A stretch of DNA of 33,303 nucleotides, taken from an archaeon (GTDB lineage: Archaea > Nanobdellota > Nanobdellia > Woesearchaeales > GW2011-AR9). Made by a program: the position numbers and the translations under genes. The notes beneath the pieces are model-generated. The model was not told the DNA's origin, did no database searches, and worked only from the letters and a program-made list of their open reading frames with translations. Below are positions 118 to 33,165 of this stretch, piece after piece. Where the stretch lies: contig JAGVMW010000114.1 in NCBI GenBank assembly GCA_020053615.1, positions 1 to 33,303 on the forward strand, written 5' to 3'. Numbering within the stretch: the first letter of the stretch is position 1; the number at the start of each line of letters is the position of its first letter.

Positions 118-286
118 GGTCGGGTCGGCAAACAGGGGTTTACAGGAATTTTACTCGGCTCGTAAAATTCCCAAATGTCAATCCAGCTCTCAAAAATTTC
201 TCAGCTCTGATTTTTCATGGGTTGCCGAAAAATCGAGGAGAAATTTTTGGAGGGATTGCCACTTCTGTAAACCCCATACGTTATAC
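118..286 (+). repeat. Junction element copy A1: 166-nt structured repeat plus core CATAC-GTTATAC (candidate structured ncRNA or attC-like recombination site)
   Basis: By eye, 118-283 matches 19227-19392 at every position except the 12 nt at 216-227. It contains nested inverted repeats: 135-145 GGGGTTTACAG with 265-275 CTGTAAACCCC; 145-154 GGAATTTTAC with 162-171 GTAAAATTCC; and a long imperfect palindrome at 179-258. It starts with CGGGTCGGCAAAC, a motif shared by the other junctions. Confidence 0.8.
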
Positions 287-315
287 GCAATTGCTAATTT
301 GCCCTTGCCGATACA

Positions 316-324
316 TTTATAAAA
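316..324 (+). promoter_or_regulatory. TATA-box-like element (TTTATAAAA) upstream of the NUDIX gene
   Basis: An A/T box lies about 25-30 nt upstream of the ATG at 348, with no Shine-Dalgarno between them. The same spacing recurs at 1034, 15686 and 19478. Confidence 0.45.
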
Positions 325-347
325 ATAAAGAACCCTCATAATTTACT

Positions 348-851
348 ATGGAACTATTACACGAGGTAAAAGACAAAGAGTGGCCCAAAGATGAATCAAC
401 TTTGGAAATCAGAGAAGCTTCCAGGGCTGTGCTTTTTGACGAGAATGGCTTAATTCCTCTTCTATTTGTTTCAAATTATAATTATCACAAACTGCCCGGC
501 GGTGGAATTGATGATGGCGAAGATAAAGCTCAAGCGTTAATTCGCGAAGTGATGGAAGAAGTTGGCAGTAAGATTGAAGTTACTGGCGAAGTTGGAAAAA
601 TTATTGAATATCGCTCGCAATTTAATTTGAAACAAATATCATATTGTTATGTCGGCAAAATAATTTCAAAAGGATTGCCGACTTTCACGGAAGAGGAATT
701 AAGCCAAAACTTTAAACTAGTTTGGTTGCCATTAAATGAAGCGATTTCCAAAGTTGAAAACGATAAGCCAACGAATTATGAGGGTTCTTTTATTCAGCAA
801 AGGGATATTGTGTTTTTAAAAAAAGTTCAGCAGATGAAACGGGCAAATTAG
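348..851 (+). CDS. NUDIX hydrolase
   Basis: A full Nudix box is present: GGGIDDGE-DKAQALI-REVMEEVGS fits Gx5Ex7REUxEExGU. Confidence 0.9.
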   Translation: MELLHEVKDKEWPKDESTLEIREASRAVLFDENGLIPLLFVSNYNYHKLPGGGIDDGEDKAQALIREVMEEVGSKIEVTGEVGKIIEYRSQFNLKQISYCYVGKIISKGLPTFTEEELSQNFKLVWLPLNEAISKVENDKPTNYEGSFIQQRDIVFLKKVQQMKRAN

Positions 852-934
852 CAACTTGCTCCGCTACGCTCCGCACCACGCTACGCTCTCGCTACACTGC
901 GTTTCGCTCGGGGCGTATAACACATACGTTATAC
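852..934 (+). repeat. Junction element J2: GC-rich block (CGCTACGCTC variants) plus core GTATAAC-ACATAC-GTTATAC
   Basis: GCTCGGGGCGTATAAC aligns with the CGGGTCG-N3-AAC motif of the other junctions. The 8-nt arms CGTATAAC (914-921) and GTTATACG (928-935) are perfectly inverted around a 6-nt spacer. Confidence 0.7.
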
Positions 935-936
935 GA

Positions 937-1648: not shown

Positions 1649-2423
1649 ATTTGAAACGAGAACCTCGTACAAATATCTCAAACAAGTAATCTCTGCCTTA
1701 GAGGAACCTATTTGCATTCTCGGGGGATGGGCAGTATTTCTTCACGTAAACAAGAACTTTCAAAAGGCACAGGGCAGACCATATCTTGGAAGTAGAGATA
1801 TTGATTTAGGATTCAACCTGGATAAAAATGCAACCGTAGAGCAAATGAAAAATTCTGCACTTGCAAAGTCACTTGATGTTCTTCAAAATAAGCTTAAATT
1901 TAAGTCCGTGTCCTTTCGACTACTCAAAGAAATCCATACTGAAACGGAGGAGGAAATCGAGGAAGGAAAGATTATTCCAGCGCATTTTATCTTTCCGATG
2001 TATGTTGATGTGCTTGTTGACAACATCCCTGCAAAATTCAAAGAGGTTTTCCGTTTTCAACCAGCAGACGAGCCATTATTACGTTTTGCGTTTGAGGATG
2101 GAAAATATAGAAAAGAATTAAAAGAGTTCAACAAGAGATTGTTGCTACCAAAACCAGAGTTATTACTTGCTACAAAATTTAATGCTTTAAAGCACAGAGA
2201 TAAAGAGCACAAGAAAATAAAAGACATCTGTGATATTTTCGCGTTACTTTGGTATACAGAAGAAAAACCAGAAGCTTTGAGAGAAAAAATAAGAAGTTTT
2301 ATTAGTCATCAATCTCTTTCAAAATCGATCAAATCTATTGATGGAAGCGATTATCAAAAAGCAGCAAACCAACTAAATCACTCACCGATAGAAATTAGAC
2401 GAGTGGTAGAAATACTACTATGA
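1638..2423 (+). CDS. Nucleotidyltransferase, AbiEii/AbiGii (DUF1814)-like toxin
   Basis: It has a GGWAVFLH...GSRDIDLGF NTase motif and a C-terminal KFNALKHRDKEHKKIKDICDIFAL helix, both typical of the AbiEii family. Confidence 0.55.
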   Translation: MYLEFETRTSYKYLKQVISALEEPICILGGWAVFLHVNKNFQKAQGRPYLGSRDIDLGFNLDKNATVEQMKNSALAKSLDVLQNKLKFKSVSFRLLKEIHTETEEEIEEGKIIPAHFIFPMYVDVLVDNIPAKFKEVFRFQPADEPLLRFAFEDGKYRKELKEFNKRLLLPKPELLLATKFNALKHRDKEHKKIKDICDIFALLWYTEEKPEALREKIRSFISHQSLSKSIKSIDGSDYQKAANQLNHSPIEIRRVVEILL

Positions 2424-3391
2424 TAAAAATGGAAAAGTACCGATTCAGAGAATATAATTCAAAGTACAAGAAGTTCTTTTTGAAAGAGAAGAACACCATA
2501 ACAAAAGCGCTTGGGGACAATTGCTTCATAGAACATGTGGGAAGCACATCCATTCCAAGCCTCGGCGGAAAAGGTATTGTTGATGTTTTAGTAGGCGTTA
2601 AATCCAAGAATCACCCTAAATTTATCAAAACGCTGAAATCTACAGGTTATGAATTCAGAGAAAAAGCAAGTACATCAGACCGACTCTTTTTCAGGAGAGA
2701 TTACAACTCAGGTAAAGAAACAAGAAGAGTACACATTCATTTAACCAAATTTGACGGTAAAGACTGGAATGAGATGATCGCTTTCCGAGATTACTTGTTA
2801 AAACATCCAGAAGATGTAAAGAAATACGTAAAAATCAAGAAAGAAGCAGTGGAAAAAGCAAAAGGTGAAGGAGAGATTTACCGAGAATTTAAACAATCAT
2901 TCATGGAAGAAATTACCAGAAAACAGTTAGCTATTAACGAACTCAGAAGAAAAGTTCAAGAGATAGTTAAAATTGCTACTACTCTCAAAAATAAGCACAT
3001 CAGCAATAAAAATGCACCCGTAAACTATGCCTGTATCTTCTCCCATAGCCAAAAAGAATATGAAGAGTCAATAAGAATTACACAGAGCATAGGAAAAATA
3101 GTAAAAGAAACACCAACAGGTTTACTATTCCAAGTTGAACCGTTAAAAACCGTTTCTGGTATTCTGAAATTACTCAAAATTCGTATTCCTGATGCTACAC
3201 GGCCGGAACTGGGTGATGCCGATTTTACAATCACAAATTTTCAAAGCTTCAAGAAAAAACATCTTCAAAAAAGAGGATTCAAGCTAATTCCACGTGAACA
3301 TTTTGAAATGATTGAACTTGTAGATTCTAAGTTTAATGTGAGAGCATATTTTTCAAATCCGCCACTGGATAAACAATTAAAAATAAAGTAA
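2420..3391 (+). CDS. GrpB (UPF0157) nucleotidyltransferase-fold domain fused to an unknown C-terminal domain of about 150 aa
   Basis: EHVGSTSIPSLGGKGIVDVLVGV, RRVHIHL and FRDYLLKHPEDVKKYVKIKKE match GrpB signatures. The start overlaps the upstream stop as ATGA. Confidence 0.7.
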   Translation: MIKMEKYRFREYNSKYKKFFLKEKNTITKALGDNCFIEHVGSTSIPSLGGKGIVDVLVGVKSKNHPKFIKTLKSTGYEFREKASTSDRLFFRRDYNSGKETRRVHIHLTKFDGKDWNEMIAFRDYLLKHPEDVKKYVKIKKEAVEKAKGEGEIYREFKQSFMEEITRKQLAINELRRKVQEIVKIATTLKNKHISNKNAPVNYACIFSHSQKEYEESIRITQSIGKIVKETPTGLLFQVEPLKTVSGILKLLKIRIPDATRPELGDADFTITNFQSFKKKHLQKRGFKLIPREHFEMIELVDSKFNVRAYFSNPPLDKQLKIK

Positions 3392-3400
3392 CACAACCTT

Positions 3401-3476
3401 GGGAAATGGGGCTCTATGACGTTAAAAACCGATGGCTCGCTGTGCTCGCCCGAAAAAAGTGTCCTTGCGTCATACG
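3401..3476. repeat. Right arm of the inverted repeat flanking the AbiE/GrpB block
   Basis: GGGAAATGGGGCTC (3401-3414), CGTTAAAA (3420-3427) and AAAAAAGTGTCC (3453-3464) are reverse complements of the left-arm blocks. A GC-rich insert of about 25 nt sits between them. Confidence 0.75.
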
Positions 3477-3565
3477 CCTCCGCTCCTCGACTGCGGTCTG
3501 CGGTGCTCTGGGACGTTGCACTTTCGCTTCGCTCACCTCGTATAACAGCAACTGCGACGTTAAAC
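3477..3565 (+). repeat. Junction element J3: GC-rich block plus core GTATAAC...GTTAAAC
   Basis: ACGTTGCACTTTCGCTTCGCTCACCTCGTATAAC-AGCAACTGCGAC-GTTAAAC aligns with J2 and J4. It has the same orientation as all other junctions. Confidence 0.7.
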
Positions 3566-3800
3566 AAAATTTTCTTACTGCCTAGTAGGTTCACTTCGTT
3601 CCCGAAAATCCTTAAAGTTAGTGCCTTCGTTAAATCTGGTAAAACGGAAACTCAAACAATCACTTCGTGACTATTTCTAACATTGATTTAACGACTACAT
3701 TTCATTCGACCCAAATTTTTACTTACTTTAAACGACTGGGGGGAATTCCGTAACGATAACTAAACGAAAAACGAACCGAAAAGAGGGGGGGCGAGAAAAC
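3566..3800 (-). repeat. Inverted copy of the leader-type (S2) repeat, abutting the hsdR stop codon
   Basis: The reverse complement contains GTTTTCTCGCC (3790-3800), ACGGAATTCCCCCC (3738-3751), TTAAAGTAAGTAAAAA (3716-3731) and GGCAGTAAGAAAA (3570-3582). These are in the same order as 13712-13904. Confidence 0.75.
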
Positions 3801-6800
3801 TTATTTACTAACCCAACCTTTAGCAATTAATTCTGCTTGCTTCAAAACTGTTTCTATTGCGTTCTTTTCCTTATCTGGAGGATAACCATATCTCCTTAAA
3901 ATCTTCTTGACTTTCAAACGCATTCCTGCTTGCACGCTTTCTCTTTGAGTCCAATCTATGGTTACACTATTTCTAATCATTTCAGTTAGTTCTAATGCGA
4001 TTTTTCTAAGAGCATCATCACCTAAAACTTTAACTGCACTATCATTGACTTCAAGAGCATCGTAAAATGCAACTTCATCATCATTCATATTAAGCTCTTT
4101 GCCTCTGCCTTTCTCATCTCTGACTTTTCTTGCTAATTCAATTAACTCTTCTATAACTTGGGTAGCTTCTATACTCCTATTTGTATATTTCTTGATGGTT
4201 TTATCAAGCAAATCCATAAATGATTTAGCTTGAACCATATTTTTCTTTGACATAATTCTTATTTCATCGTTGAGCAATTTCTTCAATGCTTCAAATGCGA
4301 GATTTTTCTGAGGCATTTCCTTGACTTCTGCTAAGAAACCTTCGGATAAAATTGAGAGTTCTGGCTTTTGAATTCCTGCTGCTTCAAAAATATCTATAAT
4401 TCTATCAGAGATAACCGCTTTTGACAAAATCTGCTTAATCGCTGAATCAAATTTATCCTGTAATTCTCTCTTTGTTTCTGTTGTTTTGGTGATAGCAGAT
4501 TTTATTGCTTGAAAAAGTCCCACTTCATCCTTTATTTTCATTGCTTTATCATGCGGAACAGCTAAAGAAAACGCTTTTAGAAGAGCAGTTACTTCTCTGG
4601 CAAATCTTTCTTTTTTATCTTTTTCTTTGAGAATATGCTCCATCGCAGACGGAACAAACGACACTCTCTCCTCTGGTCTAAGTTGGAAGAATTTTTTATA
4701 ATTGAAGCCATAGAACATATCTTTTACAACTTCGTACTTTTCCATCATTAGCTTAACTGCTTGCTCTTGGTCAAAAGTCGGTTTTCCTTTTCCGCCACTT
4801 TCAGTATAATTCATTAATGCTTTTTTTAGTTCAACACCAACGCCCATATAATCAACTATCAAACCGCCTTCTTTTCCAGGATAAACTCGGTTTACTCTGG
4901 CAATTGCCTGCATTAAAGTATGCCCTTTAATCGGCTTGTCTAAATACATGGTATGAAGAGAGGGAGCATCAAAACCTGTCAAAAACATATCCCTGACAAT
5001 CATTAATTTAAGCTCATGTTTGTCATCTTTCAGGTTGTCGCCTATCTGCTTTCTTCTTTTTCTGTTTCTTATGTGCTGTTGCCATTCTTTTGGATCAGAA
5101 GCTGAACCAGTCATAACAACTTTTATGAAACCTTTATCATCGTCTTCATTATGCCATTCTGGCTTTAATCTGATTATTTCATTGTAGAGTTCTACGCAGA
5201 TTCTTCTGCTCATGCCAACAATAATTCCTTTTCCTTCTAAAACAGACAATCTCTCCTCAAAATGCTTAACTATATCTTTGGAAATTCTTGCTATTCTTCT
5301 TGGAGAACCCGCAACTTTTTCTAATCTTGCCCACTTACTTTTGAGTATGTCCTTGCATTCAATTTCTTCTCCTTCGGTTGCTTCCTCGAAATCTGTGTCT
5401 ATCTTTGGTCTTTCTTCTGGTTTTAATTCAAGTTTTGCTAATCTGCTTTCATAATAAATTCTTACAGTAGCTCCATCTTCAACTGCCTGCTCAATATCAT
5501 AAACATCAACATATTTTCCGAATACTGCTGGCGTGCTTCTATCTGATTTCTCAATCGGAGTTCCTGTAAATCCAATAAAAGAGGCATTTGGAAGAGCATC
5601 TCTTAGATATTTTGCATATCCGTACGTGATTAATGCCTTGTCTTTCTTGTCTAATATCTTCGCAGAAAAACCATATTGGCTTCTGTGAGCTTCATCAGCT
5701 ATAACTATAATATTGTCTCTTTCTGAAAGAATCGGATACGTTTCTCTGTTCTCTTCTGGGAAAAATTTTTGTATTGTGGTGAAAACAACTCCGCCAGAAG
5801 ACACTTTGAGAAGTTTTTGCAGTTCTTTTCTGTCTTCTGCCTGTGTTGGTTTTTGCCTTAGAACATCTTGGCACTTTCCAAAAGTCCCAAAAAGCTGGTC
5901 GTCTAAATCATTTCTATCAGTTAAGACTATAATTGTAGGATTGTCAAATTCTCTTATCAATTTGCCGGTATAGAAAACCATTGTCAGCGATTTTCCAGAA
6001 CCTTGCGTATGCCAGACAACTCCTGCTTTTTTATCGCCTTTTGGCTGTTCTTTAACTGATGAAAGTCCGTAAGATTCTGGGGCTTCTCTTACTTGCATAA
6101 TTGATTTTGCGCTGGCTCTTCTGGTTGATTCTATTGCTTTAATTACAGCCCAATATTGATGATAAGCAGCTACTTTCTTTTTTGTCTCTTTATCTTTCTC
6201 AAAAACAATGAAATTTCTGATAATGTCTAATATTCTTTTCTTATCGCACATTCCTCTGAGTAGGATTTCTATTTCAGTAAATCCTTTCTTTGGCTTTTCT
6301 CCGTTGATAGTTTTCCACTGCATAAACCTCTCTCTTTCAGAGGTTATTGTTCCTGCTCTTGCTTCAATTCCATCACTGATAATTAAGATTTCATTAAATC
6401 TGAATAATGATGGTAGCTGTTGCATGTACGTCTGAAATTGGTCGTAAGCTGTCCAAATATCAGCTTTTTCGTCTGCCAAATTTTTTAATTCCAAAACTAC
6501 CAATGGCAAGCCATTTATGAAAAGAATAACATCTGGTCTTCTTTCAACATTATTTTCAATAATTGTAAACTGATTAACTGCTGAAAACTCATTATTCTCA
6601 AGATTTTCAAAATCAAATAATTTTACTATGATGTGTCTTTCTTCTCCACCTTTTGAGATTGGAATACTAACGCCATCAACGAGCAGTTTATGGAAACTTT
6701 CATTGTCTGCTATTAGCTTCTGGCTTTCGCTTCTGAGAATTTGCTTTAAAGCTAACTCTCTGGCTTCTTCTGATATGCTTGGATTGATTTTTCTGAGAGC

Positions 6801-6968
6801 ATATCTTAATTTATCAACAAGAACAACATCTTTATAGTCTGATCTTAAAGCAGAGCTTCCGCCAGGCAGATATTCCTCATTGCTTCCTCTTATTATATCA
6901 TAGTCTAAAGCCTTGAGAATATTCAAAACATTCTCTTCAACGTGTTCTTCAGTTATGAGGTGTTTCAT
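3801..6968 (-). CDS. hsdR: Type I restriction enzyme R subunit
   Basis: The N-terminal PD-(D/E)xK region reads [19 protein letters not shown]. Helicase motifs are HTQGSGKS and ADEAH. The C-terminal [12 protein letters not shown] matches a DUF3387-type tail. Confidence 0.95.
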
Positions 6969-6981: not shown

Positions 6982-7338
6982 TTATACTATTTTTAGTCTC
7001 TTTGCTTCTTTAATAAATCTTTTCTGTATATCAAGAATCATAGAGGGATTTTTACTATATTTTTCATTAATTCTATTTACATCGTCTTCGTGATCCACTA
7101 TACGACCACATTGAGAGCAAATCCACTTGGGAGTGCCCATTGGAGATGAAAAAAGAGATTCGAAACTTATCTGATTGCCATTTATATCAATAATTCTTCC
7201 ATGTGGGCAAATATTCTTCAGCTGATCAAGTTTTATTTTTCTTCTGTTTTCTAAAAATTTATTTATATCAAATTTAAAGCTAAATCTAATTGCAAAAGCA
7301 GCCACAATTATTAAAATCAGTGTTTCTAAAAATGCCAT
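6982..7338 (-). CDS. Small hypothetical protein with an N-terminal TM helix and a Cys/His cluster (CPHG...CSQCG)
   Basis: The ORF is packed between hsdS and hsdR and overlaps the hsdS end by 13 nt. It has a hydrophobic N-terminus and a zinc-ribbon-like CxH...CxxC pattern. Confidence 0.45.
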
Positions 7339-8645
7339 GCTCTAACCTCAACAGGAACTCTGATTTTTCCTGATATTAATCTTGGAAGCAGGGAATCTCG
7401 GATTTGTGAGAGTATATTTTGAGTATTGATATTATCTTCACATTTAAGCATTATTTTAATGATCGAATCTTCAAATTTTGAAATAACTTCTTTACTCGGA
7501 ACTATTATGGACATATCCAATATATCGCTGGCAGATATCCTTTGGTGACTGCCACTCGTTCCCCTGGCCATCTGTACCAACTCACCTAACACGGAATGTT
7601 CTTTAAACAGAAGATATAAGTAGCAAAAAAAGGATTTATTTGGTTTGAAAACTAAAAATTCAGTTGAGCATATTGATTTTTCTTTAGCATTTATGACTGG
7701 CCAGATTCTGGGAATTCTTGGATTCAATTTAGAGAATAAGACAGACATATTAGTGACAATAAATTTGTTGCTTAATATTTCAGAACCCCTTTGATCAAAT
7801 GATGTTTTCCCGCCATCGTATGCTTCAATACTCAAGTGACTAAATATCTCTTCAGGAGAACTAACTGGATTTATTTGTTCCTTATTTTGCGTAGCAATAT
7901 TATGAATCATTCCAATTTTCCATCCTTTCGGTATCTTTCCTAACTCAGAATCAACCATTTCTCCGCCAGTAGACTTATATGGCTTTCCTTTCTCGTTTTG
8001 AAATTCAAAGTCTATAAACCATCTTTTGAAGATTGCTCGGCTTAACTCCTCCAAAACTTTATTTATCTTCTGATTAAGTTCTATTTTTAAATCTAAATCT
8101 GAGAGGATTTTAGCGATGGCAATTTGTTCAGGAAAAGAGGGGATATTGATTTCATAGCTCATAATCGAATTTTTATCTCCACGTGGCATTTTGGTTCCTT
8201 TAGAAGTCAAAACAGTAAATTCAAAAAAGTTATCTTGAGATAAATAGTAGTAAAGATATTTGTTGTTTATGCTTGATTTTTTCCTTATAACCAATACATC
8301 ATTAGAACAACCACCGGAAAATTTTGCCAACCAAAATTTCTTAAAATATGTCCTAATATTTGAGAATAAAATATCTCCTTCTCTGAATTGAGTTACCTTC
8401 CCAACTTTAGGTAATGAAGAAGCCACAGTAATCCCGCCTTTTTCAGGCAGCATATTTTCGGTTGAAATAAAATTATTCAGATTTATTTCAACAAGACTAA
8501 TCTTTTCAGTAATATATGAAGCAGTTTCTTTTAACTCTTTAACTTCCCAATCTTCAGGAATCATTCCTATTTCAGTTTGCTTCATCTTTGATGAATGCTC
8601 AGAAAACTTGTTTTCTGTTGGTTTTAATTTAGTTTGTTGTTTCAT
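7326..8645 (-). CDS. hsdS: Type I restriction enzyme specificity subunit (two target recognition domains)
   Basis: The TRD-start motif is duplicated (IPEDWEVKELKE and IPKGWKIGMIHNI). Conserved spacer helices are present (AIAKILSDLDLKIELNQK and SQIRDSLLPRLISGKI). Confidence 0.9.
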   Translation of the reverse strand: MKQQTKLKPTENKFSEHSSKMKQTEIGMIPEDWEVKELKETASYITEKISLVEINLNNFISTENMLPEKGGITVASSLPKVGKVTQFREGDILFSNIRTYFKKFWLAKFSGGCSNDVLVIRKKSSINNKYLYYYLSQDNFFEFTVLTSKGTKMPRGDKNSIMSYEINIPSFPEQIAIAKILSDLDLKIELNQKINKVLEELSRAIFKRWFIDFEFQNEKGKPYKSTGGEMVDSELGKIPKGWKIGMIHNIATQNKEQINPVSSPEEIFSHLSIEAYDGGKTSFDQRGSEILSNKFIVTNMSVLFSKLNPRIPRIWPVINAKEKSICSTEFLVFKPNKSFFCYLYLLFKEHSVLGELVQMARGTSGSHQRISASDILDMSIIVPSKEVISKFEDSIIKIMLKCEDNINTQNILSQIRDSLLPRLISGKIRVPVEVRAWHF

Positions 8646-22184: not shown

Positions 22185-25100
22185 TTACGAAATAAAATCT
22201 AAAGTTATTAATCTTAATTTCTTCTCATCAAACTCGTCTAAGCCTTCTTTTTCATAAACCAGCTTATCCGAAACAAAATTAGTAACATCTACAATTAGTT
22301 TTTTCCAATTTTTATGTCCTTTTCTATAATTATTCCAAACTTTTCTAATAATTTGAATCCTCTTCTTAGTTAAACTAATGTTAACTAATTTCTTTCTAGT
22401 CTCTTCCCATTGTTTTTCTAATGCATTATCTTCCGGAAAATCTAAAATGTAATCCTCTATATCTCTCTCTATTTCGATAATTAATTGGCTCAGAAACTTT
22501 TTACTTCTTTCCTTACTCCAATCCTGTTGTTTTGTATCTGCTTCTTCCTTTACTCGTATTGAATTATATGTTTCTTTAATATCTTTAAGAATATTGGTGT
22601 TAATATCATATACTTCCTCGAAAAATTTAGGAATAACTCTTTTTTCGCTCTCTTTACAAGAAATAAATTGAAGTATTTCGGTTTTGTTCTTAATTGATTT
22701 TCTCGATTCTAAATCATGCAAATACCAGAAATGGAAATCTTCTCCATATTCATAATAAAAGAAAATTCCCCTAATACTTTTTTTAATCAAACCACTATGA
22801 ATCCCATCAGGCAGGTTTTCTAATTCTTTCATTGAACTTTTCTTGAGGTAAGTTTTCAATGGCTGATAAAAAACTTCTCCTCCACCAAATACGTCAGCTT
22901 CCAATTCATCTAAAACTGAAGATTCTTTATCTTTTATCCTCCTGATTACTCCAAAAACTTTAGGATGGATTTTTTCACCCAAAACAGTCTGATCTAATCC
23001 TACTGACTTATCTATATTGATTATTTTGTTTTGAAGAATGTTAACTAATTTTAATAATTCTTCTAATTCATCTTCTGGGAAGAAATTGTAAATATATATT
23101 TTATCATATAATGAGCCAATCCTGTCAATTCTACCTGCCCGCTGAATCATTCTTGTTGGATTCCAATGCAAATCATAATTTATTAAAATTTGTGCGGTCT
23201 GTAAGTTTTGTCCTTCTGATAATACATCAGTGCTTAGAAGAATGTCTATTTCTTTGTTTTTAAATCGTTCTATAATTTTTTGTCTGTCTTTTGGTGTAAA
23301 ACTGCCAGAACCAGAGATTTTTTGAAGCTTGATGTTTTTGAATTCTTTTTGTTTAGAAAGATAATCATAAACATAATCTAAAGTATCTTTGTAATAAGTA
23401 AAAACTACAATTTGGCTTTTTTCGTGTAATTTCAATAATTTATCTTTAAATTCAAGTAATTTTGCATCTTTATCAGGAGTTAAGTTCTTTATTTTTTCTA
23501 ATATACTCCCTAATAGTTGAATATCAATTTTAATGTCTTTAAACATCTCTTCTTTATTGTAATTATTTATGTTGAATTTATCTAATTGTGCTAGTATCTC
23601 CTGTTCAATTTCTTCTGAATCTTCCTCAAAGTCTTCATCTTCGGCAAGTATATATTTTATTAGTTTAGTATAAGCTTGTTTAGATAAGAATTTTCCTTCT
23701 TCTAAACAATTCATCATTGTCTTTAAGAACTTGATATGACGACTAACGCTAATCCTGAATGCCTCAATACTGCTTTCTAGTCTTTTTAGAAGAATTGTTT
23801 TGAAAATACCGCCTATGGCAATCATACGATTTAAAGCCAAGATTTCTTCTTGCGTTTGCAAATTTTCTTTTTTATATCTAAGAATATTATAATAAGCCAT
23901 AGTCAGCTTTTCGGATATTATGTCCGCAATTTCGCGATACATCCCTTGGTAAGTTTGATTCAGTTTGTAATTGATTGTTTCTAGCTTCCTATCTGGAAAT
24001 GTTATTTTCTGCCCATTAACTGTTGCATTAGGATACTCTTTTTTAATATAATCTCTGGTTCTTCTGATAGAAATTTCATTTAGTAAGTCGTTTAATAATG
24101 CAGGATTGCCTCTCTTATCAATTTCTTTAAAATGGACAAATAAATCAGGAATGTTCTCTTTTATGAATGTTGCATTATCATTTCCAACAAGAAGAAGAAT
24201 CTGTGAATACAAATCCCAAATAGAATTATTGATGGGTGTGGCAGTCATAAAGAGAATTTTAGGTTTTTCACCGTTTTCTTTTGTGATAAACTCAATTAAT
24301 GTGTTCATGTTCTCCCACCTGTTAGAGAGTTGATTTCTAAGATTATGGCTTTCATCAACAATTATTAATTCTACTTCTTCTAAATGCCCGCCAGTGGCAG
24401 TTTTTGCTTTATCTAAGAAGTCTTTAGAAGCTAAATTTTCTTGTGAAAGAATATTTTCAGTAAGTTGCTTATCTTTCAATGCGGGAAGCCACATTGTTTC
24501 CTTTAATTGTGCCGGACAGATAACTAAGCATCTCTTTCTTCTAAAAAAACCAAATTCTTCTAATACTTTAAGCGCAATATATGTTTTACCTAAACCAACC
24601 GAATCAGCAACCATGACTGCCCCATATTTTTTTAAACGTGAGAAGACTCTTTGAACAGCATCACTTTGAAATTCGGTTAATTCAACATTTGAAATACCAC
24701 TTTTGTCTTTCTTTTTTTCTTCTTCCTCTGATTCTGCGGCTATTTCATCTTTTTGCAGTTCATAAAGTGATTTTATATAAATTTGAAATGGAGTGTATTC
24801 TGTAGTTCCAAATCTTGAATTTTTGAGTAAAGTGATTAATTGCTCTTTAAATTCTAAAGATTCTTTCCAGAATTTATTGAACCAGTTTTCTCTACTATAT
24901 TCAACAAACATTTTACCCTGCTGAACAGTGTTATATTCTCCTTCTCTTGTAAGCCCAGCATAAGTAAAATTGGAAGAGCCACTAACCACTAATTTATCAA
25001 AAATATAAGTTTTTCCATGCAATAGGTTTTTGTCATAAATTCTGATTTCCACATTATGTTTTTCTAAAAAAGTAATTAAATCAGTAACATGGTCTTTCTT

Positions 25101-25391
25101 TTCTTTTGTAAGACCTAACTCTGCAATTTCTGTTTCTACTACTTTCAGCAGGGCTTTTCCTAAAGTCTGATTGTTATCCGTAAGTTCGGGGGATTTTCCA
25201 AGAAGCAAGCGAAATTTAGTAACTCCTTCTAATTTTTCTTTAACCAAAGCATACCCCTCCACGTTAAAGAATGCGGTAGCAATATCTAAATTAGTATTGG
25301 GATCTAAATGGAGAACTTTGTTTAGGAAAACAGACAGTTTTATGTTGTTGTTATCAACAATGTTTTCGTCAATCATCATTTGAATACCCAT
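22185..25391 (-). CDS. PLD-nuclease domain fused to an SNF2-family helicase
   Basis: The N-terminal LLHGKTYIFDKLVVSGSSN is an HxK..D..GSxN PLD motif. SNF2 motifs are GLGKT, IVDESHNLRN, TATPINN, LSEGQNLQ and QRAGRIDRIG. The likely start is the ATG at 25379, in an ATGA overlap with the upstream stop. Confidence 0.9.
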   Translation of the reverse strand: MGIQMMIDENIVDNNNIKLSVFLNKVLHLDPNTNLDIATAFFNVEGYALVKEKLEGVTKFRLLLGKSPELTDNNQTLGKALLKVVETEIAELGLTKEKKDHVTDLITFLEKHNVEIRIYDKNLLHGKTYIFDKLVVSGSSNFTYAGLTREGEYNTVQQGKMFVEYSRENWFNKFWKESLEFKEQLITLLKNSRFGTTEYTPFQIYIKSLYELQKDEIAAESEEEEKKKDKSGISNVELTEFQSDAVQRVFSRLKKYGAVMVADSVGLGKTYIALKVLEEFGFFRRKRCLVICPAQLKETMWLPALKDKQLTENILSQENLASKDFLDKAKTATGGHLEEVELIIVDESHNLRNQLSNRWENMNTLIEFITKENGEKPKILFMTATPINNSIWDLYSQILLLVGNDNATFIKENIPDLFVHFKEIDKRGNPALLNDLLNEISIRRTRDYIKKEYPNATVNGQKITFPDRKLETINYKLNQTYQGMYREIADIISEKLTMAYYNILRYKKENLQTQEEILALNRMIAIGGIFKTILLKRLESSIEAFRISVSRHIKFLKTMMNCLEEGKFLSKQAYTKLIKYILAEDEDFEEDSEEIEQEILAQLDKFNINNYNKEEMFKDIKIDIQLLGSILEKIKNLTPDKDAKLLEFKDKLLKLHEKSQIVVFTYYKDTLDYVYDYLSKQKEFKNIKLQKISGSGSFTPKDRQKIIERFKNKEIDILLSTDVLSEGQNLQTAQILINYDLHWNPTRMIQRAGRIDRIGSLYDKIYIYNFFPEDELEELLKLVNILQNKIINIDKSVGLDQTVLGEKIHPKVFGVIRRIKDKESSVLDELEADVFGGGEVFYQPLKTYLKKSSMKELENLPDGIHSGLIKKSIRGIFFYYEYGEDFHFWYLHDLESRKSIKNKTEILQFISCKESEKRVIPKFFEEVYDINTNILKDIKETYNSIRVKEEADTKQQDWSKERSKKFLSQLIIEIERDIEDYILDFPEDNALEKQWEETRKKLVNISLTKKRIQIIRKVWNNYRKGHKNWKKLIVDVTNFVSDKLVYEKEGLDEFDEKKLRLITLDFIS

Positions 25392-28113: not shown

Positions 28114-28938
28114 TTATTTTTTAAACAGTTCTCTTATATCTTTACTTCCAACTAGCTTTACGTTGTTAAAATGTTGGGGGTATTCTTCTCTAGTTAAAGT
28201 TATTAAATAATTAACCATGTACCATTTCAATCCATTATTCTCACTTTTCGCATTTGCTAAATGAATATAAGCATTTCTTGATTCCCTAATAATGTCTAAA
28301 CAATTATGTTTGTTAATATAACTATACTTTTTTAAGTATCTTTTGCCTTTTGTACCAACTAAAGCCGGAGTTTTATCGATTTTATATTTTTGAATAAAAG
28401 AAAGATAACCTTCCTTAAGAGATTTATTAGACGCATGGAATAGTTTAATACATTCATGAAATTTGAATGTTTCTGAGGAGAAATTTGAACTAATATCTTT
28501 CTTTGCATCATAATAAATCTTATTTAATTTGGATTGGGTTAATTGTGAGATTTTATTTAATTTATCCAATTTCATGGTGTATTTCTGAGAAAATTTGTTT
28601 GACAACATTTTGTTCAAACCAGTAAAAACACCATTTTTTCTGTCAAGCCCAACACACCTATCGGTTTTGTTTATAATGAAATTTCTTTTAAGTAAGATGA
28701 GTTTGACTAAGTGTTCTGCAGTTGAACCAATTAAATTCATTTTCTGAAGATGATAAGCTCTTGATTGGTAAAATTTCTGTTTTTGTCCTTGATTATAGGA
28801 AACAACTTTTTTATTTAACAAAATTTTGACTAATTTAAGATTTTCTTTGATTAAAGCTATATAAGTATCTACTACTATTGGTTGATATAAAAGTATATCA
28901 AATTTATCTTTCGAAATTTCCCATTGTTTTAGTTTCAT
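28114..28938 (-). CDS. Hypothetical helical protein with an RNxxxH motif, possibly HEPN (Abi_2/AbiD-F-like)
   Basis: IIRESRNAYIHLANA contains Rx4H in the RNxxxH form seen in several HEPN RNases. An upstream helix reads GSTAEHLVKLILLK. The call rests on the motif alone. Confidence 0.4.
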   Translation of the reverse strand: MKLKQWEISKDKFDILLYQPIVVDTYIALIKENLKLVKILLNKKVVSYNQGQKQKFYQSRAYHLQKMNLIGSTAEHLVKLILLKRNFIINKTDRCVGLDRKNGVFTGLNKMLSNKFSQKYTMKLDKLNKISQLTQSKLNKIYYDAKKDISSNFSSETFKFHECIKLFHASNKSLKEGYLSFIQKYKIDKTPALVGTKGKRYLKKYSYINKHNCLDIIRESRNAYIHLANAKSENNGLKWYMVNYLITLTREEYPQHFNNVKLVGSKDIRELFKK

Positions 28939-31900
28939 TTTTTCAAACTCGTCGCTTTGTTTAATCTTTGCTGTACTAACTCACAGACAGCCCAATATAC
29001 TTCTTTTCTTTCTTCTTTGGTTAATCCCAATTCATCAAAGATGATATTGTCAAGTTCTGCTCGGTCTGGAAGAGGCTTTGGCTCTTGTTCACGGATGGGT
29101 TTGGTGGGGTCGATGCCGAGTTCTTCAAATATTGATTTTACTTCTCTTGTAAAAAATTTATTAATATTATATTTTGAAAAATTCAATTTTTGGAGCGATA
29201 CCATTGGGATTTTATTAGCATCCATTGTAGCTAAATCCAGAGCACCCTGACCTAAATTTGAACGTCCATAAATTTCAATAAATAAAGCAGTAAATGTAGA
29301 GTTAAGAAGTAATGAAAAGTACTTTGGATTTACTTCTTTTTTTAGTTTTATCATGTGAAAGCGACGGTCACTTAATGCTTTCTTTTCCGAATATGGATGA
29401 ATAAACCGGTCATTATACCCATATAACATAAAGCAATTTGTGAACTCAACATTAGAAATAGACCACCAGCCCGGTTTTCTATTTACTACGGTTGGAACTT
29501 CTGGCCATGGGATTCCTGCTTTGACTTTACCTTTCTCTTTTGTCTCTTGTCTCTCTCCCCATTCTATATACTTTAAAGCATTGTTATGGTCCTTTGATTT
29601 CAGCGAGTTCTTAGATTCATTACAAATAAAAACAAATTTTTTGTTGATATATTTATTTAAACTAATGCACTTAACATCCTGAGGAGATTTAATCAATGGG
29701 ATAAGATAATCAGTCTCAATTTTCCATTTTTTTACTTGTTCTTCGTTCAAATAAAAGAAATCATTTATCCCGCTGTAAAGTCCCGTATCCACTTTACCGT
29801 ATAATTCTTTTAATACTCCAACATCCTTCTTACTGAGTATACTAAAAACTATGTCTGGAGAACGCAAGAACTTACTCCCCCACTTATTTCCTTCATAACT
29901 CCCTTTGCCAAACCTTCCATTTTCATACCCTTCTGGATATTCCCAACCATCTTCCAGCAAATCTTCCTGATTAATGGGATAAACCCTAAACTCATTTGTT
30001 TTCAGTATCTTCTCTGCTTTCTCAATCTTAACCAGATTAGCCGCATTAACCACTTCCTCAAATGGCTTCTTGAACATCACAAAGCGAGCAGTTTGACTAA
30101 ATCCAGAATATGTCGCTTTTCCATTGCCATTATACTCAGCGCCATACTCAAATAATGATTTTTGCTTGCCAATTACCGGCGCACCCAAAAGTGCAATAAT
30201 TGTATTTACATCAGCATGCTCAAAGCTTCGTTTGGCTTGATTGTCATAAATTCCAATAACGTGCGAATATCTTAACAAAAACTCCTGCAACCCCTTCCCA
30301 TAACCCACATCCAGCCAAGAATTAGAGGTAATAAAACAAAACACTCCACCAGAATTAAGCAAACTCAATCCGTGAAAGTAAAAATAGACATACAAATCGC
30401 TTTTCTTATCCCAATCAATAACGACAGGAAACCTATTTTGAACGGATTTAATCAATTTCTCTTTATATCCTCGTCTATCTTCAAGTGTAACCTCTTCTTT
30501 AAGCTTATTTGGCGGAGCAATCTTCTCCTGCCGCACATACGGCGGATTGCCAATCACAATATCAAACCCGCCTTCATCTGCAAATACTTCCGCAAAATCA
30601 ATATCCCAAACAAATGGTTTCTTGGCAGGATCTTTCAATAACTCTTTTACTTTCTTTAATTTCTCAATTTCATCAGCACATTCTTTTATCCGGTTTTCAA
30701 GCTCAATTAAATTCTTCTTCTCTTTTTTGATATTCTCCGCATCAATATTAACTGAAGCGCCAAATAAGCCCGTTTGCTTCTCTTTCTTACTTGAAGAATG
30801 GGTTAAGACTTGAATATCAGTCTCTAATGATTCTATCCGTTCATTCAAAATCTCTTCAAATAATCTAACCTCTTGCACTTTAAACTCTTCTGGAGTCTTA
30901 TATTTTGCTGAGGGAGAATTTTCAAAATATCTTCTTTTCTCATTTTTCAACTCTTCCAGTTTTTTCTTTAAATGCGGCTTCAGATTATTGCTTCGCACAT
31001 TAAAGCTGATTCCACCAATTTCCTGCACTAATGAATCACCAACACGCAGATTCATGTTTAAATTTGGTAATAACGGATGTTTCCTTAATTCTTCATCTTT
31101 AAATTGTGTTTCCACAATCAACTGAAGCCATAATCTTAATTCTGAGGCATGAATTGCCCAGGGCATGACATCTACCCCATATAGAGAACGTTGGATTATC
31201 CTATACTTTAATTGGAAGTCGCTTAAGCTAGAACCAATATGCTTAAACACAATTTTATACAATTCTACCAAGACATTAAGCATCCCTACTAAAAATGCCC
31301 CCGAACCACAGGCAGGATCAACAATAGAAAGATTATCCAACGCTTCCTCTATTTTACCCCAGCATTTACGCTGATTGAACTTCTTCTCAATTTTCTCTTT
31401 ATCTTCATCAAATACAAACTCGTATAATTCCTCTTTAGGTATCTCTAAATTCTTTCCTAGATACTCTACTAAAGACCTTCGACACATAAAATCTACTTCT
31501 ACTTTAGCAGTATAGAATATACCCCAATCCCCACGCAAATCTTCTTCATTTTCATAAACATCCTCTGTAATATTAGCCAGAGACTCATAAACATAACCAA
31601 TCATTTGAGGATCAACGGAGACTTCTACATCTAATACAGAATCTTCTTTGATGGTAAAATTGTAGCTTTCGAAGAAGTCAAATATCTCTTTAAAGAGATT
31701 ATCAGATATGTTTATCTTTAAGTCGTCTAACCCTATTTTTTTAGTAAATAAGCCGCCATTAAGATAGGGACTATTTGACAATATTTTATTTACTTCCTCG
31801 GGAAGTTCAGGATGATAACTGGATTTATTATTAAAAGCCTCAAAGAACAGAGGTTTTAACCATTTATCATAAAATTCATTATTTCCATATTTACTAATTC

Positions 31901-32672
31901 GTTTATATAAATCCCAATATGCCTGCATAAATTTTCTATCTTTATTCAGCCATTCTTTCTTAGCTATAAAATAAATGAACATAATTCTATTCATAAATTG
32001 TAATGTAAATTCATGGGCTATTTTCGGGTCTACCTTCTGTTTTTTGAGTTCTTTTCTCACCACTAAAAATAGTCTTTGATAATCCTCAAAAAATTTCTTA
32101 GTAACTTTCTGAACATCAAACGCCTCTTTCCATAACCGCCAGAGTTCTCGCCATGTTTTCTTTTGGTCTTCCAGAAATATATTGCAAATTATCTCAATAT
32201 CTGTATAATAAAGCTCATCTTTTTTCAATATTAATGTGGTTGTTTTAAGTTTATGTTTTCCTACCTCCTGCTTTTCGTAATCTGGAAACACAATATGTAT
32301 CTCTTTATAATCGATTGTAATAATTAAGAGACATCGCGTGTACATTTCAGCGAATTTGTTTGCGATATATCGCATAAGAGGCTTACTAAGAGAGTTAGTT
32401 TCAATTAAGAAGACATTGAGTTTATCATAACTCATAACTGTGTAAATTGTTTTAATTTTGTCTCGTTCTTCACTGGCAAAAGAAAATTCTTTTATCTTTT
32501 TAACATAAGATGAATCAAAAATTGCTTCTTTTGGATAATTTAGACTCTTAAACAAACCATATATATCCTCTGAATTCTTTATGAAAGAGATATAATCTTT
32601 AACTTTCTTTCGGAGATCTGAATTATTATTCACTTTTCCCGCCCCCTCTTCTCTAACTCTGCTTCCATGCAT
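28935..32672 (-). CDS. Large N6-adenine DNA methyltransferase, Eco57I/type IIG- or PglX-like
   Basis: Motif I is IVDPACGSGAFLVGML and motif IV is VIGNPPYV, with a coiled-coil insert between them and a long C-terminal region. I could not identify a clear N-terminal nuclease motif. The more likely start is the GTG at 32633, in a GTGA overlap with the RHH-2 stop, rather than the ATG at 32672. Confidence 0.8.
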   Translation of the reverse strand: MHGSRVREEGAGKVNNNSDLRKKVKDYISFIKNSEDIYGLFKSLNYPKEAIFDSSYVKKIKEFSFASEERDKIKTIYTVMSYDKLNVFLIETNSLSKPLMRYIANKFAEMYTRCLLIITIDYKEIHIVFPDYEKQEVGKHKLKTTTLILKKDELYYTDIEIICNIFLEDQKKTWRELWRLWKEAFDVQKVTKKFFEDYQRLFLVVRKELKKQKVDPKIAHEFTLQFMNRIMFIYFIAKKEWLNKDRKFMQAYWDLYKRISKYGNNEFYDKWLKPLFFEAFNNKSSYHPELPEEVNKILSNSPYLNGGLFTKKIGLDDLKINISDNLFKEIFDFFESYNFTIKEDSVLDVEVSVDPQMIGYVYESLANITEDVYENEEDLRGDWGIFYTAKVEVDFMCRRSLVEYLGKNLEIPKEELYEFVFDEDKEKIEKKFNQRKCWGKIEEALDNLSIVDPACGSGAFLVGMLNVLVELYKIVFKHIGSSLSDFQLKYRIIQRSLYGVDVMPWAIHASELRLWLQLIVETQFKDEELRKHPLLPNLNMNLRVGDSLVQEIGGISFNVRSNNLKPHLKKKLEELKNEKRRYFENSPSAKYKTPEEFKVQEVRLFEEILNERIESLETDIQVLTHSSSKKEKQTGLFGASVNIDAENIKKEKKNLIELENRIKECADEIEKLKKVKELLKDPAKKPFVWDIDFAEVFADEGGFDIVIGNPPYVRQEKIAPPNKLKEEVTLEDRRGYKEKLIKSVQNRFPVVIDWDKKSDLYVYFYFHGLSLLNSGGVFCFITSNSWLDVGYGKGLQEFLLRYSHVIGIYDNQAKRSFEHADVNTIIALLGAPVIGKQKSLFEYGAEYNGNGKATYSGFSQTARFVMFKKPFEEVVNAANLVKIEKAEKILKTNEFRVYPINQEDLLEDGWEYPEGYENGRFGKGSYEGNKWGSKFLRSPDIVFSILSKKDVGVLKELYGKVDTGLYSGINDFFYLNEEQVKKWKIETDYLIPLIKSPQDVKCISLNKYINKKFVFICNESKNSLKSKDHNNALKYIEWGERQETKEKGKVKAGIPWPEVPTVVNRKPGWWSISNVEFTNCFMLYGYNDRFIHPYSEKKALSDRRFHMIKLKKEVNPKYFSLLLNSTFTALFIEIYGRSNLGQGALDLATMDANKIPMVSLQKLNFSKYNINKFFTREVKSIFEELGIDPTKPIREQEPKPLPDRAELDNIIFDELGLTKEERKEVYWAVCELVQQRLNKATSLKK

Positions 32673-32779
32673 TTCTCAAACTGACGAGAAACTATCCAGC
32701 CTTCTTTTTTGCATAACTCCCTATAGGTATCATACAATTTTGAATTAACTTTCAAAGTGATATTCTTACTCTCTTCCAT
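32630..32779 (-). CDS. Ribbon-helix-helix small protein RHH-2, a paralog of 13511-13663; not in the supplied ORF track
   Basis: My manual translation gives [49 protein letters not shown]. In my alignment 40 of 44 core residues are identical to RHH-1. The gene is preceded by GAGGGAATGA. Confidence 0.7.
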   Translation of the reverse strand: MEESKNITLKVNSKLYDTYRELCKKEGWIVSRQFEKCMEAELEKRGREK

Positions 32780-32849
32780 TATCATTCCCTCTAACTAGAT
32801 TAATAATAAATAACTGCACATACTTATAAAGATTACTATGCTGAAACTC

Positions 32850-32953
32850 TTCTCGCCCCCAACGACTTAAACTGAACTCCCTACTAACAACAAAACTACG
32901 GAATTCCCCCACGACGAACGACTAAAATAATGTCTGCTTCGCAGTAATTGATT
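32850..32953 (+). repeat. Leader-type (S2) repeat upstream of RHH-2 and the methyltransferase
   Basis: TTCTCGCCCCC (32850-32860) and ACGGAATTCCCCC...CGAACGACTAAAATAATGTCTGCTTCGCAGTAATTGAT (32898-32953) are near-identical to 13799-13853. Confidence 0.8.
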
Positions 32954-33060
32954 GATGATTCATTAAAAAACTACGGTAGCCCCTAACTCGCTCAGAAACA
33001 AAGTTTCTGGCGTGCAAGAAAAATCGCTGTTTTTCTTCGCATCTCAGCGCTGAAAAAACT

Positions 33061-33165
33061 CTGCGCACTGCGGTGCTTGCCCCGCTGCGCTCTCACTCCA
33101 TTTTTATGTCCTGCGGGACTAAAAATTCCGTTCGGGTCGAGAAACAGCGCACGCATATGTTATAT
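33061..33165 (+). repeat. Junction element J9 (GC-rich block, CGGGTCGAGAAACAGCG, core CATAT-GTTATAT)
   Basis: GCGCTCTCACTCCATTTTTATGTCCTGCGGGACTAAAAATTCCGTTCGGGTCGAG aligns with 19176-19236. The core lies at 33154-33165. Confidence 0.7.

Follow-up and report, generated by a model that had tools for sequence, protein, structure and literature searches.

Integrons are the textbook gene-capture device of bacteria, and in Archaea they have so far been reported only as rare bacterial-type elements. Among Xer-dependent systems, CTX-phi integrates as a folded single-stranded hairpin by one strand exchange of XerC, and the pdif modules of Acinetobacter are flanked by sites in inverted order (XerC-XerD, then XerD-XerC). 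Archaeal integrons were detected with bacterial attC models by Ghaly et al. (2022; Sci Adv, PMC9668308), with six IntIs in 75 of 6718 genomes; the IntI insertion was not fully conserved in the integron-like subgroup of Smyshlyaev et al., and the dif sites of Thermococcales are not adjacent to xerA (PMC2958812). The present analysis concerns seven repeated intergenic junctions (J1 to J7), and the gene blocks between them, in a stretch of 33,303 nucleotides (contig JAGVMW010000114.1, assembly GCA_020053615.1) from an archaeon of the Woesearchaeales, hereafter the window. A preliminary description of this DNA had read the junctions as belonging either to a divergent integron-like platform or to an undescribed cassette-shuffling system. 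The arrays of relatives support that reading, and none of the contrary outcomes listed with it came about. Judged from its sequence, the window is probably an internal stretch of the cassette array of an archaeal integron-like gene-capture platform.

The junction motif recurs in related archaeal genomes and in metagenomes. A scan of species-representative genomes with the 19-mer TCGGGTCGGCWAACAGSGG gave 47 matches, mostly chance matches in GC-rich bacteria, but true copies of the whole module were found in metagenome-assembled genomes (MAGs) of Woesearchaeota/Nanoarchaeia (contigs L019, L032, and L042) and of Thermoplasmatota (L003 and L031), and the pattern was also present in about 20 further AT-rich metagenome contigs. 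Judged by these nearest DNA relatives, the window most likely derives from a DPANN-type archaeon. Viral contigs gave zero matches to the attI pattern and a single chance match, at 60% GC, to the junction pattern. L032 encodes a tyrosine recombinase of 271 aa at a distance of 2.7 kb from the first module. Immediately upstream of its start, the sequence runs up to CGGCTAATAGGG-GTTTGCC, and the part from GTTTGCC onward is a repeat of what stands behind the first hairpin site, 2.8 kb away. This recombinase has 7224 homologous proteins at E ≤ 1e-20, and the 120 closest ones listed are approximately 58-88% identical and carry the labels Woese-, Pace-, Aenigmat-, and Nanoarchaeota and Thermoplasmatota.

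Whether a recombinase accompanies such arrays was examined at ten loci (L032, L048-L054, L154, and L155; annotated as Woese-, Pace-, Aenigmat-, and Nanoarchaeota and Thermoplasmatales), and all ten have a tyrosine recombinase of 255-271 aa and an attI-like site beside the array. The sequence TCG(G)CTTAAT-N4-GTT lies 85-100 nt upstream of the recombinase start codon at every locus, the recombinase gene is divergent from this conserved, double-stranded attI-like core, and the arrays begin at the core. Housekeeping genes (FEN1, topoisomerase VI, ribosomal protein S10, and DnaJ) are found on the other side of the recombinase gene, and the genes behind the attI-like site are variable and often related to defense, including SIR2, a weak match to HATPase_c_3, HicAB, an MmeI-like restriction-modification (R-M) gene, a Shedu SduA-like gene, and methyltransferases. 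The native attI is likely a 7-6-7 core, CGCTTAA-TAGTTG-TTAGGCG, in which the crossover seen in the arrays lies at the right edge of the 6-bp center. The sequence GTTAGGCGTAATT is found at attI and again at the distal ends of arrays. Contigs L048, L051, and L052 end at or just after the attI-like site, and the ends of L134 and L139 also lie at an attI-like site or within the 160-nt hairpin described below. Contig ends at this position are expected of a hypervariable or repeated region in an assembly, and since contigs stop at these sites and hairpins, the platforms are probably under-assembled and under-counted in MAGs.

Comparison of the arrays places the point of exchange at the GTT core. In 17 of 23 junction pairs, the NNNNAAC 7-mer at the end of a cassette and the GTTNNNN at its start are perfect reverse complements, whereas 100,000 permutations gave 1.96 such pairs on average and never more than 9. 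This cognate rule includes the first cassette behind attI in six arrays (L032, L049, L053, L054, L154, and L155). Cognate pairs are GTTATCT/AGATAAC and GTTGTCC/GGACAAC in L049, GTTAGGC/GCCTAAC, GTTATAT/ATATAAC, and GTTAGTT/AACTAAC in L054, and GTTCATT/AATGAAC in L053, the last spanning a 4.3-kb block with R-M and Shedu genes. Eleven distinct copies of the 160-nt site share 99% identity over the 40 nt through GTT, which falls to 36% over the 40 nt beyond, and their tails after GTT include ATAC, AAAC, AGGC, TGCC, AAGT, AGTT, TTCC, and AAAT. L049 and L050 encode an identical recombinase and share the same sequence through ...CTACGTTA, then diverge right after GTTA into different first cassettes (SIR2 and an ORC/CDC6-like gene, respectively). 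Segments of the window also recur with other neighbors: a J5-like site in L143 precedes a different cassette, and the start and end modules of the window's third block (C3) lie only 3.3 kb apart in L096, around a much shorter cargo. Block content in the relatives therefore switches exactly at the GTT cores.

By its scores, the array recombinase is about as close to archaeal XerA as to integron integrases and ranks as a borderline XerA. Its best NCBIfam match is the XerA equivalog NF040815, at 200-214 bits and below the cut-off of 220 in all six proteins tested, and the second is the integron integrase TIGR02249, at 180-195 bits against a cut-off of 265, with profile positions of approximately 175-236 unmatched. 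Against solved structures, the L032 protein has Vibrio IntI4 as its top match (133 bits), and Pyrococcus XerA reaches 120 bits without gaps. The alignment to VchIntIA (IntI4) breaks into two parts, between which residues 168-193 of the query face residues 172-242 of IntI4; since approximately 25 residues stand where IntI4 has approximately 70, the additional domain of IntI is missing. Similarity to VchIntIA is high in the C-terminal catalytic region (82 bits over 68 residues). Pyrococcus XerA (132.5 bits), IntI4 (130.8 bits), and Thermoplasma XerA (130.5 bits) are equally close to the Thermoplasmatales member.

These scores bear on an alternative of the type of the integrative mobile elements exploiting Xer (IMEX), in which the enzyme is the housekeeping XerA, the adjacent site is the chromosomal dif, and the blocks are integrase-less elements that have accreted by exploiting XerA on double-stranded 7-6-7 cores or on a folded hairpin (the mode of CTX-phi with XerCD), with no dedicated capture platform. 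The near-threshold match to the XerA equivalog, a protein of XerA length without the IntI insertion, a gene set among housekeeping genes, and the resemblance of the native attI and of two shortened sites in the window (J2 and J6) to 7-6-7 double-stranded cores all accord with it. However, every member examined scores under the equivalog cut-off, the members annotated as Thermoplasmatales are no closer to the XerA of Thermoplasma than to the Vibrio IntI, and the canonical archaeal dif is not beside xerA (PMC2958812), whereas the site here is always about 90 bp upstream of the gene. Moreover, a double-stranded core with a fixed spacer cannot fit an AAC-to-GTT spacing of 6 to 211 nt, and partner sites have unlike bases at the four positions adjoining GTT, so that a two-strand exchange would find little homology in the overlap. 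We regard this alternative as rather unlikely, although it overlaps with the reading as a capture platform, the main difference being whether or not the enzyme is dedicated to cassette capture.

The hairpin sites follow a common plan across the arrays. An intact site consists of NNNNAAC, one unpaired base (usually A), a stem of 12-13 bp, an interior in which CCCAAAT connects two sub-hairpins, the second strand of the stem, four unpaired bases, and GTTNNNN. As the interior varies in length from 0 to approximately 190 nt, a grammar scan (AAC-N1-stem-...-stem-N4-GTT) with shuffled and anchor-swapped controls was used in place of a covariance model, and it found 37 sites in 317 kb compared to 0-5 in shuffled sequence. 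The sites comprise 24 distinct stem sequences, in which positions 10-12, not imposed by the scan, are paired in 20-21 of the 24; they fold better than shuffled sequences (z of -2.2 to -9.9). Across the junction family, AAC and GTT are 6 to 211 nt apart. In the stem, the 3' arm (CGCTTAAT, CTCTTAAT, CGTAAAAC, or CTGTAAAC) resembles the attI left arm TCGCTTAAT or the R'' box, a likeness that is direct from the sequences, and may accordingly behave as an L box. An asymmetric loop of 1 x 4 nt stands where the central spacer of an attC would be. No site departs from AAC and GTT; at the remaining four core positions, the YYY/RRR rule is broken in the window (GTTATAC, GTTATAT, and GGCAAAC), and canonical-looking GTTAGGC or GTTGGGC cores occur in some relatives.

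Two features of the hairpin interior stand out among the arrays. CCCAAAT (TTTGGG on the other strand) is found in the single-stranded joint of otherwise dissimilar sites, at 165-175 and 19274-19284 in the window and in L003, L049, L053, and L054; its conservation, in a part that would form the variable terminal structure in an attC, points to a contact or signal. The same hairpin interior also occurs with differing R'' cores, GCCTAAC in L062 and L131 and GGCAAAC at J1 and J5 of the window. Hairpins thus seem, from these pairs, to be exchanged or homogenized independently of the cassette-specific core, which may be the reason that the start is not cognate in three blocks of the window (C3, C4, and C6), whose ends are of the common GGCWAAC type.

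This site plan also bears on whether a canonical IntI that has the additional domain, and whose gene lies at another place in the genome, could serve the array. Inverted AAC...GTT cores that bracket hairpins, the GTTAGGC or GTTGGGC cores of some relatives, and the clusters of attC sites lacking an integron integrase (CALINs) reported from Nanoarchaeota and Thermoplasmatota (Ghaly et al., 2022; PMC9668308) would all be in keeping with such an enzyme. The attCs tested in that study, however, are built as R''-5 nt-L''...L'-6 nt-R' and not as R''-1 nt-stem...stem-4 nt-R', and the cassettes described there are short open reading frames (ORFs), generally in one orientation. The window cores GTTATAC and GTTATAT violate the RRRY rule, and the recombinase adjacent to the array is of the short type without the IntI domain at all ten loci. 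A canonical IntI acting from elsewhere is accordingly very unlikely.

All seven junctions of the window lie between genes and on the + strand, as the preliminary description had it, and its coordinates were correct throughout: the AAC halves end at 133, 921, 3546, 13976, 19242, 20987, and 33145, and the GTTAWAY cores are at 280-286, 928-934, 3559-3565, 15559-15565, 19389-19395, 20994-21000, and 33159-33165. The elements that it gave for the module are present, but the extent was understated, as the conserved module begins approximately 115 nt 5' of the AAC half, at AAAACTACGG. The occurrence of the motifs is beyond chance as measured against 100 dinucleotide-preserving shuffles for each pattern: CGGGTCGNNNAACAG (≤ 2 mismatches) occurs 6 times in the window versus 0.37 expected, a number reached by no shuffle, CATAYGTTAWAY (≤ 1 mismatch) 7 times versus 1.5, and CGYTGCRCTYTC (≤ 1 mismatch) 5 times versus 0.3. 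The junctions are also GC- and CG-rich as claimed, since the 110 nt 5' of the AAC halves have a GC fraction of 0.48 versus 0.34 for the window and a CpG observed/expected ratio of 1.47 versus 0.74. CGCT occurs there at 26 per kb versus 1.6 per kb and the complement AGCGA is absent, so that the CGCT bias is strand-specific. CTCGCT-like words occur both in the CGCT-rich block and three times in the attI region, and are putative accessory binding sites.

The intact form of the site is seen at J1 and J5. J1 (127-286, +) has R'' GGCAAAC at 127-133 and R' GTTATAC at 280-286, preceded by a left CGCT-rich module (40-126, +) that is clipped by the window start and aligns with the left modules of L019, L032, and L042 (GTTACTCTCGGTCGCTAYGGTCGGGTCG). 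Its layout is R'', one unpaired A, an 11-bp stem, a Y-shaped hairpin with central CCCAAAT, four unpaired bases (ATAC), and R'; the bottom strand folds as DNA at -41.7 kcal/mol (z = -9.9), and the site is 92-98% identical to copies in L042, L116, L119, L134, and others. J5 (19100-19395, +) has a left module at 19100-19235 and an intact site at 19236-19395, with R'' GGCAAAC and R' GTTAAAC. The two sites lie inside a 174-nt repeat (118-291 and 19227-19400), the copies of which are 94-95% identical. J4 (13900-15565, +) consists of a GC-rich block, R'' GGCTAAC (13970-13976), a stem arm (13985-13996), an insertion of approximately 1.5 kb, the complementary arm (15530-15541), and R' GTTATAT (15559-15565). 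An insertion sequence (IS) inside one site had been claimed, and a DDE transposase gene (14056-15471, -) does split J4 between its complementary arms; the 85 nt after the J4 R'' are common to L042, L062, and L131, all without the IS. The transposase within the insertion (13997-15529) is of the DUF772/DDE_Tnp_1_6 type, and a piece of its gene with 85% identity lies at 2658-3044 of L019, directly after AACAGGGG of a truncated site. By analogy with the IS1111-attC elements of bacterial integrons, this type of IS may target hairpin sites.

The other four junctions have only 6-13 nt between AAC and GTT and no stem, so the caveat that several hairpins are too short for a canonical attC holds for 4 of the 7 sites. 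J2 (852-934, +) has a CGCT-rich block at 852-914 followed by GTATAAC-ACATAC-GTTATAC (915-934), in which the hairpin is gone and 6 nt separate AAC from GTT. J3 (3434-3565, +) has a GC-rich block and GTATAAC-AGCAACTGCGAC-GTTAAAC (3540-3565), and the stretch 3466-3551, which takes in that block, is 96% identical to L116 and L131. J6 (20937-21000, +) has the short block CGTTGCACTAAAATTCAATCCT, which recurs at L053 5700-5760, and GTTTAAC-AGCGAT-GTTATAC (20981-21000). J7 (32965-33165, +) has a left module with a GC-rich block and GAGAAAC-AGCGCACGCATAT-GTTATAT (33139-33165), and positions 33042-33149 are 86-95% identical to L097, L123, and L132. Since the base of the stem is kept in short sites (AGGGG-T-CCCCATAC in L070 and AGCG-CA-CGCATAT in J7), they are read as deletions of the hairpin interior, and J2, J3, J6, and J7 look like hairpin-deleted relics.

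The junctions could, on another view, be repeats without a role in recombination, such as repetitive extragenic palindromic (REP-like) elements, miniature inverted-repeat transposable elements (MITEs), bidirectional terminators, or a small RNA gene, or the blocks could be transposons with terminal inverted repeats and target-site duplications. The strong hairpins (z = -9.9), highly conserved between genomes as MITEs are, the terminal inverted repeats on cassettes, and a CATACG ahead of both of the first two cassettes (C1 and C2) would suit this view. It leaves unexplained, however, the cognate rule, the breakpoints at GTT, and the attI-like site beside the recombinase, and there is no consistent target-site duplication, as the four bases next to GTT belong to the upstream site and differ across C2, C5, and the L054 cassettes. 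No Rfam family matches the window at gathering thresholds, and at E ≤ 1 there is only a chance miRNA match within the J1 hairpin. The comparative data have already largely refuted this view, and it is hardly tenable. A transposon with target-site duplication was considered and rejected for C1 and C2, because the CATACG before each belongs to the site upstream and has no second copy elsewhere. The window contains no tRNA or tmRNA genes, which argues that the junctions are not att sites made of tRNA fragments, and a megablast search of 25 kb against plasmid and phage collections gave zero matches.

The 33.3-kb window has approximately 34% GC and is densely filled with defense-type genes as annotated with Pfam and PADLOC. 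Its cargo is mostly defense, including type I and type IIG R-M, a DISARM-like helicase, AbiE, MNT/HEPN, and nucleases. The blocks between junctions are 0.6-12.2 kb in size, hold up to approximately 10 genes each, and represent both strands; TATA-like boxes lie approximately -30 to -45 ahead of the first gene in those cassettes whose lead gene was assessable. C1 (281-921, +) encodes a NUDIX hydrolase (348-851; Pfam NUDIX) with its own TATA-like box at -32, and its ends are cognate, starting with TTATAC and ending in GTATAAC, an R'' reverse-complementary to the R' with which the cassette opens. C2 (929-3546, +) carries a winged helix-turn-helix and AbiEii-like pair (1064-2423) and GrpB (2420-3391), both by Pfam, between the cognate ends GTTATAC and GTATAAC, with an inverted repeat at 962-987 and 3401-3427. 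C5 (19390-20987, +) carries a GIY-YIG nuclease (19510-20052) and an Mrr-like endonuclease (20049-20723), also by Pfam, between the cognate ends GTTAAAC and GTTTAAC, with a 45-nt terminal inverted repeat (19392-19441 and 20894-20937). These three look like clean cassettes.

The 10.4-kb C3 (3560-13976, -) holds a type I R-M operon (HsdR 3801-6968, HsdS 7326-8645, and HsdM 11998-13521; Pfam and PADLOC), further genes for DUF1016/PDC-S02 and Schlafen/AlbA proteins, and as its lead gene a small ribbon-helix-helix-like (RHH-like) gene (13511-13693) with a promoter. It has a cognate terminal inverted repeat (3567-3583 and 13892-13907), and its R'' GGCTAAC agrees with the reverse complement of R' at 5 of 7 positions. 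An exact 27-nt direct repeat (8542-8568 and 10030-10056, from the 5' region of hsdS) flanks an insertion in this operon (ORFs 8642-10497) with a 121-aa ORF, the DUF1016/PDC-S02 nuclease, and a 151-aa ORF. The latter (10042-10497) was considered as a candidate array recombinase and rejected, as it has only a weak SAM-like integrase N-terminal domain and is unrelated to the array recombinase. The Schlafen/AlbA-HATPase gene contains the 12-nt unit TTATCGGCTCAC in three tandem copies (10714-10760). C4 (15560-19242) is a composite and decayed block by Pfam annotation, with MNT/HEPN (15720-16824, +), a methyltransferase (17398-18096, +), and Bro-N (18099-18950, -); between them, a start-less open frame (16861-17391) covers only positions 251-371 of the 371 in the class-V aminotransferase profile and is a remnant of the last third of that gene. 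C4 has no cognate end repeat, and its R'' and R' are non-cognate. The 12.2-kb C6 (20995-33145, -; Pfam and PADLOC) encodes a Cas4-like PD-(D/E)XK nuclease, an HKD+Snf2 helicase (22185-25391), DUF4411 and M78/RmrA-like proteins, a type IIG-like methyltransferase (28935-32672), and an RHH-like protein (32630-32785); it has no cognate signal, and its R'' and R' match at 4 of 7 positions. The array extends past the right end of the window, where the start of a next cassette (33160-33303, +) has a TATA-like box, a Shine-Dalgarno sequence, and an ATG at 33278.

The two minus-strand operons of C3 and C6 share elements although their cargo is unrelated. Their RHH-like lead genes are 86% identical (13521-13654 and 32634-32767), and the leader/promoter stretches are approximately 90% identical (13790-13852 and 32886-32952); judging by this likeness, the common lead gene and leader look like a reusable expression chassis. 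A conserved module of approximately 230 nt also follows the GTT core where the genes of a cassette read towards it, at 3566-3800 in C3, at 21001-21257 in C6, and at 3247-3400 and 6054-6240 of L032; it contains GCCTTCGCTAAATC and CTCCCAAATTTT and has no Rfam match. Long terminal inverted repeats of approximately 230 nt, which would bound the two large operons as a transposon or invertible segment, were considered and rejected, as a four-way alignment gave only the palindromic GGGGGAATTCC motif and a few short matches.

Several points weigh against the reading as an integron-like capture platform. The recombinase and attI are both absent from the 33.3-kb window, as the preliminary description had cautioned for the integrase, and the link to them rests on the homology of the junctions to arrays on other contigs, whose taxon labels as MAG contigs may be unreliable. 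Intact 160-nt hairpin sites are limited to 2 of the 7 junctions, and the cognate rule is followed by 3 of the 6 blocks in the window (C1, C2, and C5) and disobeyed by C3, C4, and C6. The recombinase is without the additional domain that canonical integrases need to handle folded attC, no extrahelical or bulged bases are evident in the stems of intact sites, and the enzyme could simply be the host XerA with the site acting in a dif-like manner. On the other hand, the cassettes of relatives stand in tandem behind the attI-like core, each beginning with TTNNNN and ending with a strand-specific CGCT-rich block and an attC-like site. The platform is like an integron in its working but departs from one in two defining respects, namely the absent IntI additional domain and cassettes that are not promoterless, co-oriented single genes. 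The earlier caveats against a canonical integron, that is, large cassettes in two orientations with promoter-like elements and a broken RRR rule, likewise hold.

In the capture model, attI and the site carried by a circular cassette would undergo strand exchange at G|TT, catalyzed by the recombinase. The cassette site would probably be folded as single-stranded DNA or extruded as a cruciform, with a single strand exchange. Such an exchange at a folded or extruded hairpin is favored because the AAC-to-GTT spacing is so variable, because the bases flanking GTT differ between partners, and because integrons and CTX-phi/XerCD offer precedents; it is put as an inferred mechanism given a recombinase without the IntI domain and stems without extrahelical bases. 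New cassettes would enter beside the recombinase, each bringing its own right half-site. Cognate inverted repeats in C1, C2, C3, and C5 link the cassette start to a point just upstream of the CGCT block, with scores of 27-44 (C1 35, C2 33, and C5 44) versus ≤ 22 for non-cognate pairs (≤ 18 in the case of C1), so that circularization of a cassette would place the site within a longer palindrome, interrupted on one side by the CGCT block. Since each cassette has an archaeal promoter of its own, and often comprises an entire operon in one or the other orientation, its expression would not be tied to its place in the array. Loss of the hairpin interior, as at J2, J3, J6, and J7, or insertion of an IS, as at J4, would disable sites and freeze or fuse blocks.

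The balance of evidence also tips, though only slightly, towards a wider proposal. DPANN archaea and Thermoplasmatota may widely carry an undescribed integron analogue, with an Xer-like recombinase without the IntI domain, large, self-expressed, and mostly defense-related cassettes, and distinct hairpin sites with a CGCT-repeat block, which would represent a living intermediate between Xer/dif and integrons and the main builder of defense islands in these small genomes. No description of an Xer-like-linked cassette platform in Archaea was found in the full-text literature searched, which is an incomplete collection. The evidence points to a separate and apparently common archaeal version of the integron, in which a simpler Xer-like enzyme and a different site plan serve to move whole promoter-bearing operons. 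If confirmed, this version would account for the exchange and stockpiling of anti-virus systems in ultra-small DPANN archaea and Thermoplasmatota, show the IntI additional domain to be dispensable for cassette capture at hairpin sites, and provide a testable model of integron evolution from Xer/dif as well as a compact pair of recombinase and site for inserting multi-kilobase cargo. Genome surveys are affected as well, as contigs often break at the sites and the platform would escape those current integron finders that depend on the IntI domain.

Compared with the integrons of bacteria, the arrays share a recombinase gene divergent from a simple attI site, cassettes stacked behind attI, and crossover at G|TT. 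In both, a cassette bears its own TTNNNN at the 5' end and NNNNAAC, the complement, within its 3' site; the sites form imperfect hairpins that differ in length and have R-type and putative L-type boxes, and toxin-antitoxin (TA), R-M, and nuclease genes abound in the cargo. The differences lie in both the enzyme and the sites. The recombinase is without the IntI-specific additional domain, and the sites are of the form R''-1 nt-stem/stem-4 nt-R' with no evident extrahelical bases, have four variable core positions that are unconstrained, so that the RRRY rule is inapplicable, carry a conserved, strand-specific CGCT-rich block of 60-110 nt ahead of R'', and have a conserved CCCAAAT junction in the hairpin interior. 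The cassettes are 0.6-12 kb long, often whole operons, and have either orientation and their own promoters. The archaeal integrons of Ghaly et al. (PMC9668308) are similar in being arrays of AAC/GTT-bounded hairpins in archaeal MAGs, including Nanoarchaeota and Thermoplasmatota, with much TA and R-M cargo. They differ in an IntI with the additional domain, short and mostly co-oriented ORFs, and a bacterial box spacing in the attCs tested, whereas the recombinase here falls within a large set of Xer-like homologues and the sites are built differently.

The XerA/dif and IMEX systems resemble the arrays in the size and architecture of the recombinase, with its near-threshold match to XerA, and in a core of two inverted arms with a 6-bp center, and CTX-phi would offer, by analogy, a precedent for a Xer enzyme that uses a hairpin substrate. 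However, the site here is always approximately 90 bp upstream of the recombinase gene rather than unlinked, there are many co-oriented tandem sites with exchangeable cargo rather than the single 11-6-11 dif of a terminus region, and the elements are gene blocks without an integrase rather than phages or plasmids. The pdif modules of Acinetobacter are also discrete modules, there of resistance genes and TA pairs, that are bounded by Xer-type sites and found in different contexts; by contrast, the sites here, in the window and in the related arrays alike, all point the same way, and a recombinase gene anchors the arrays.

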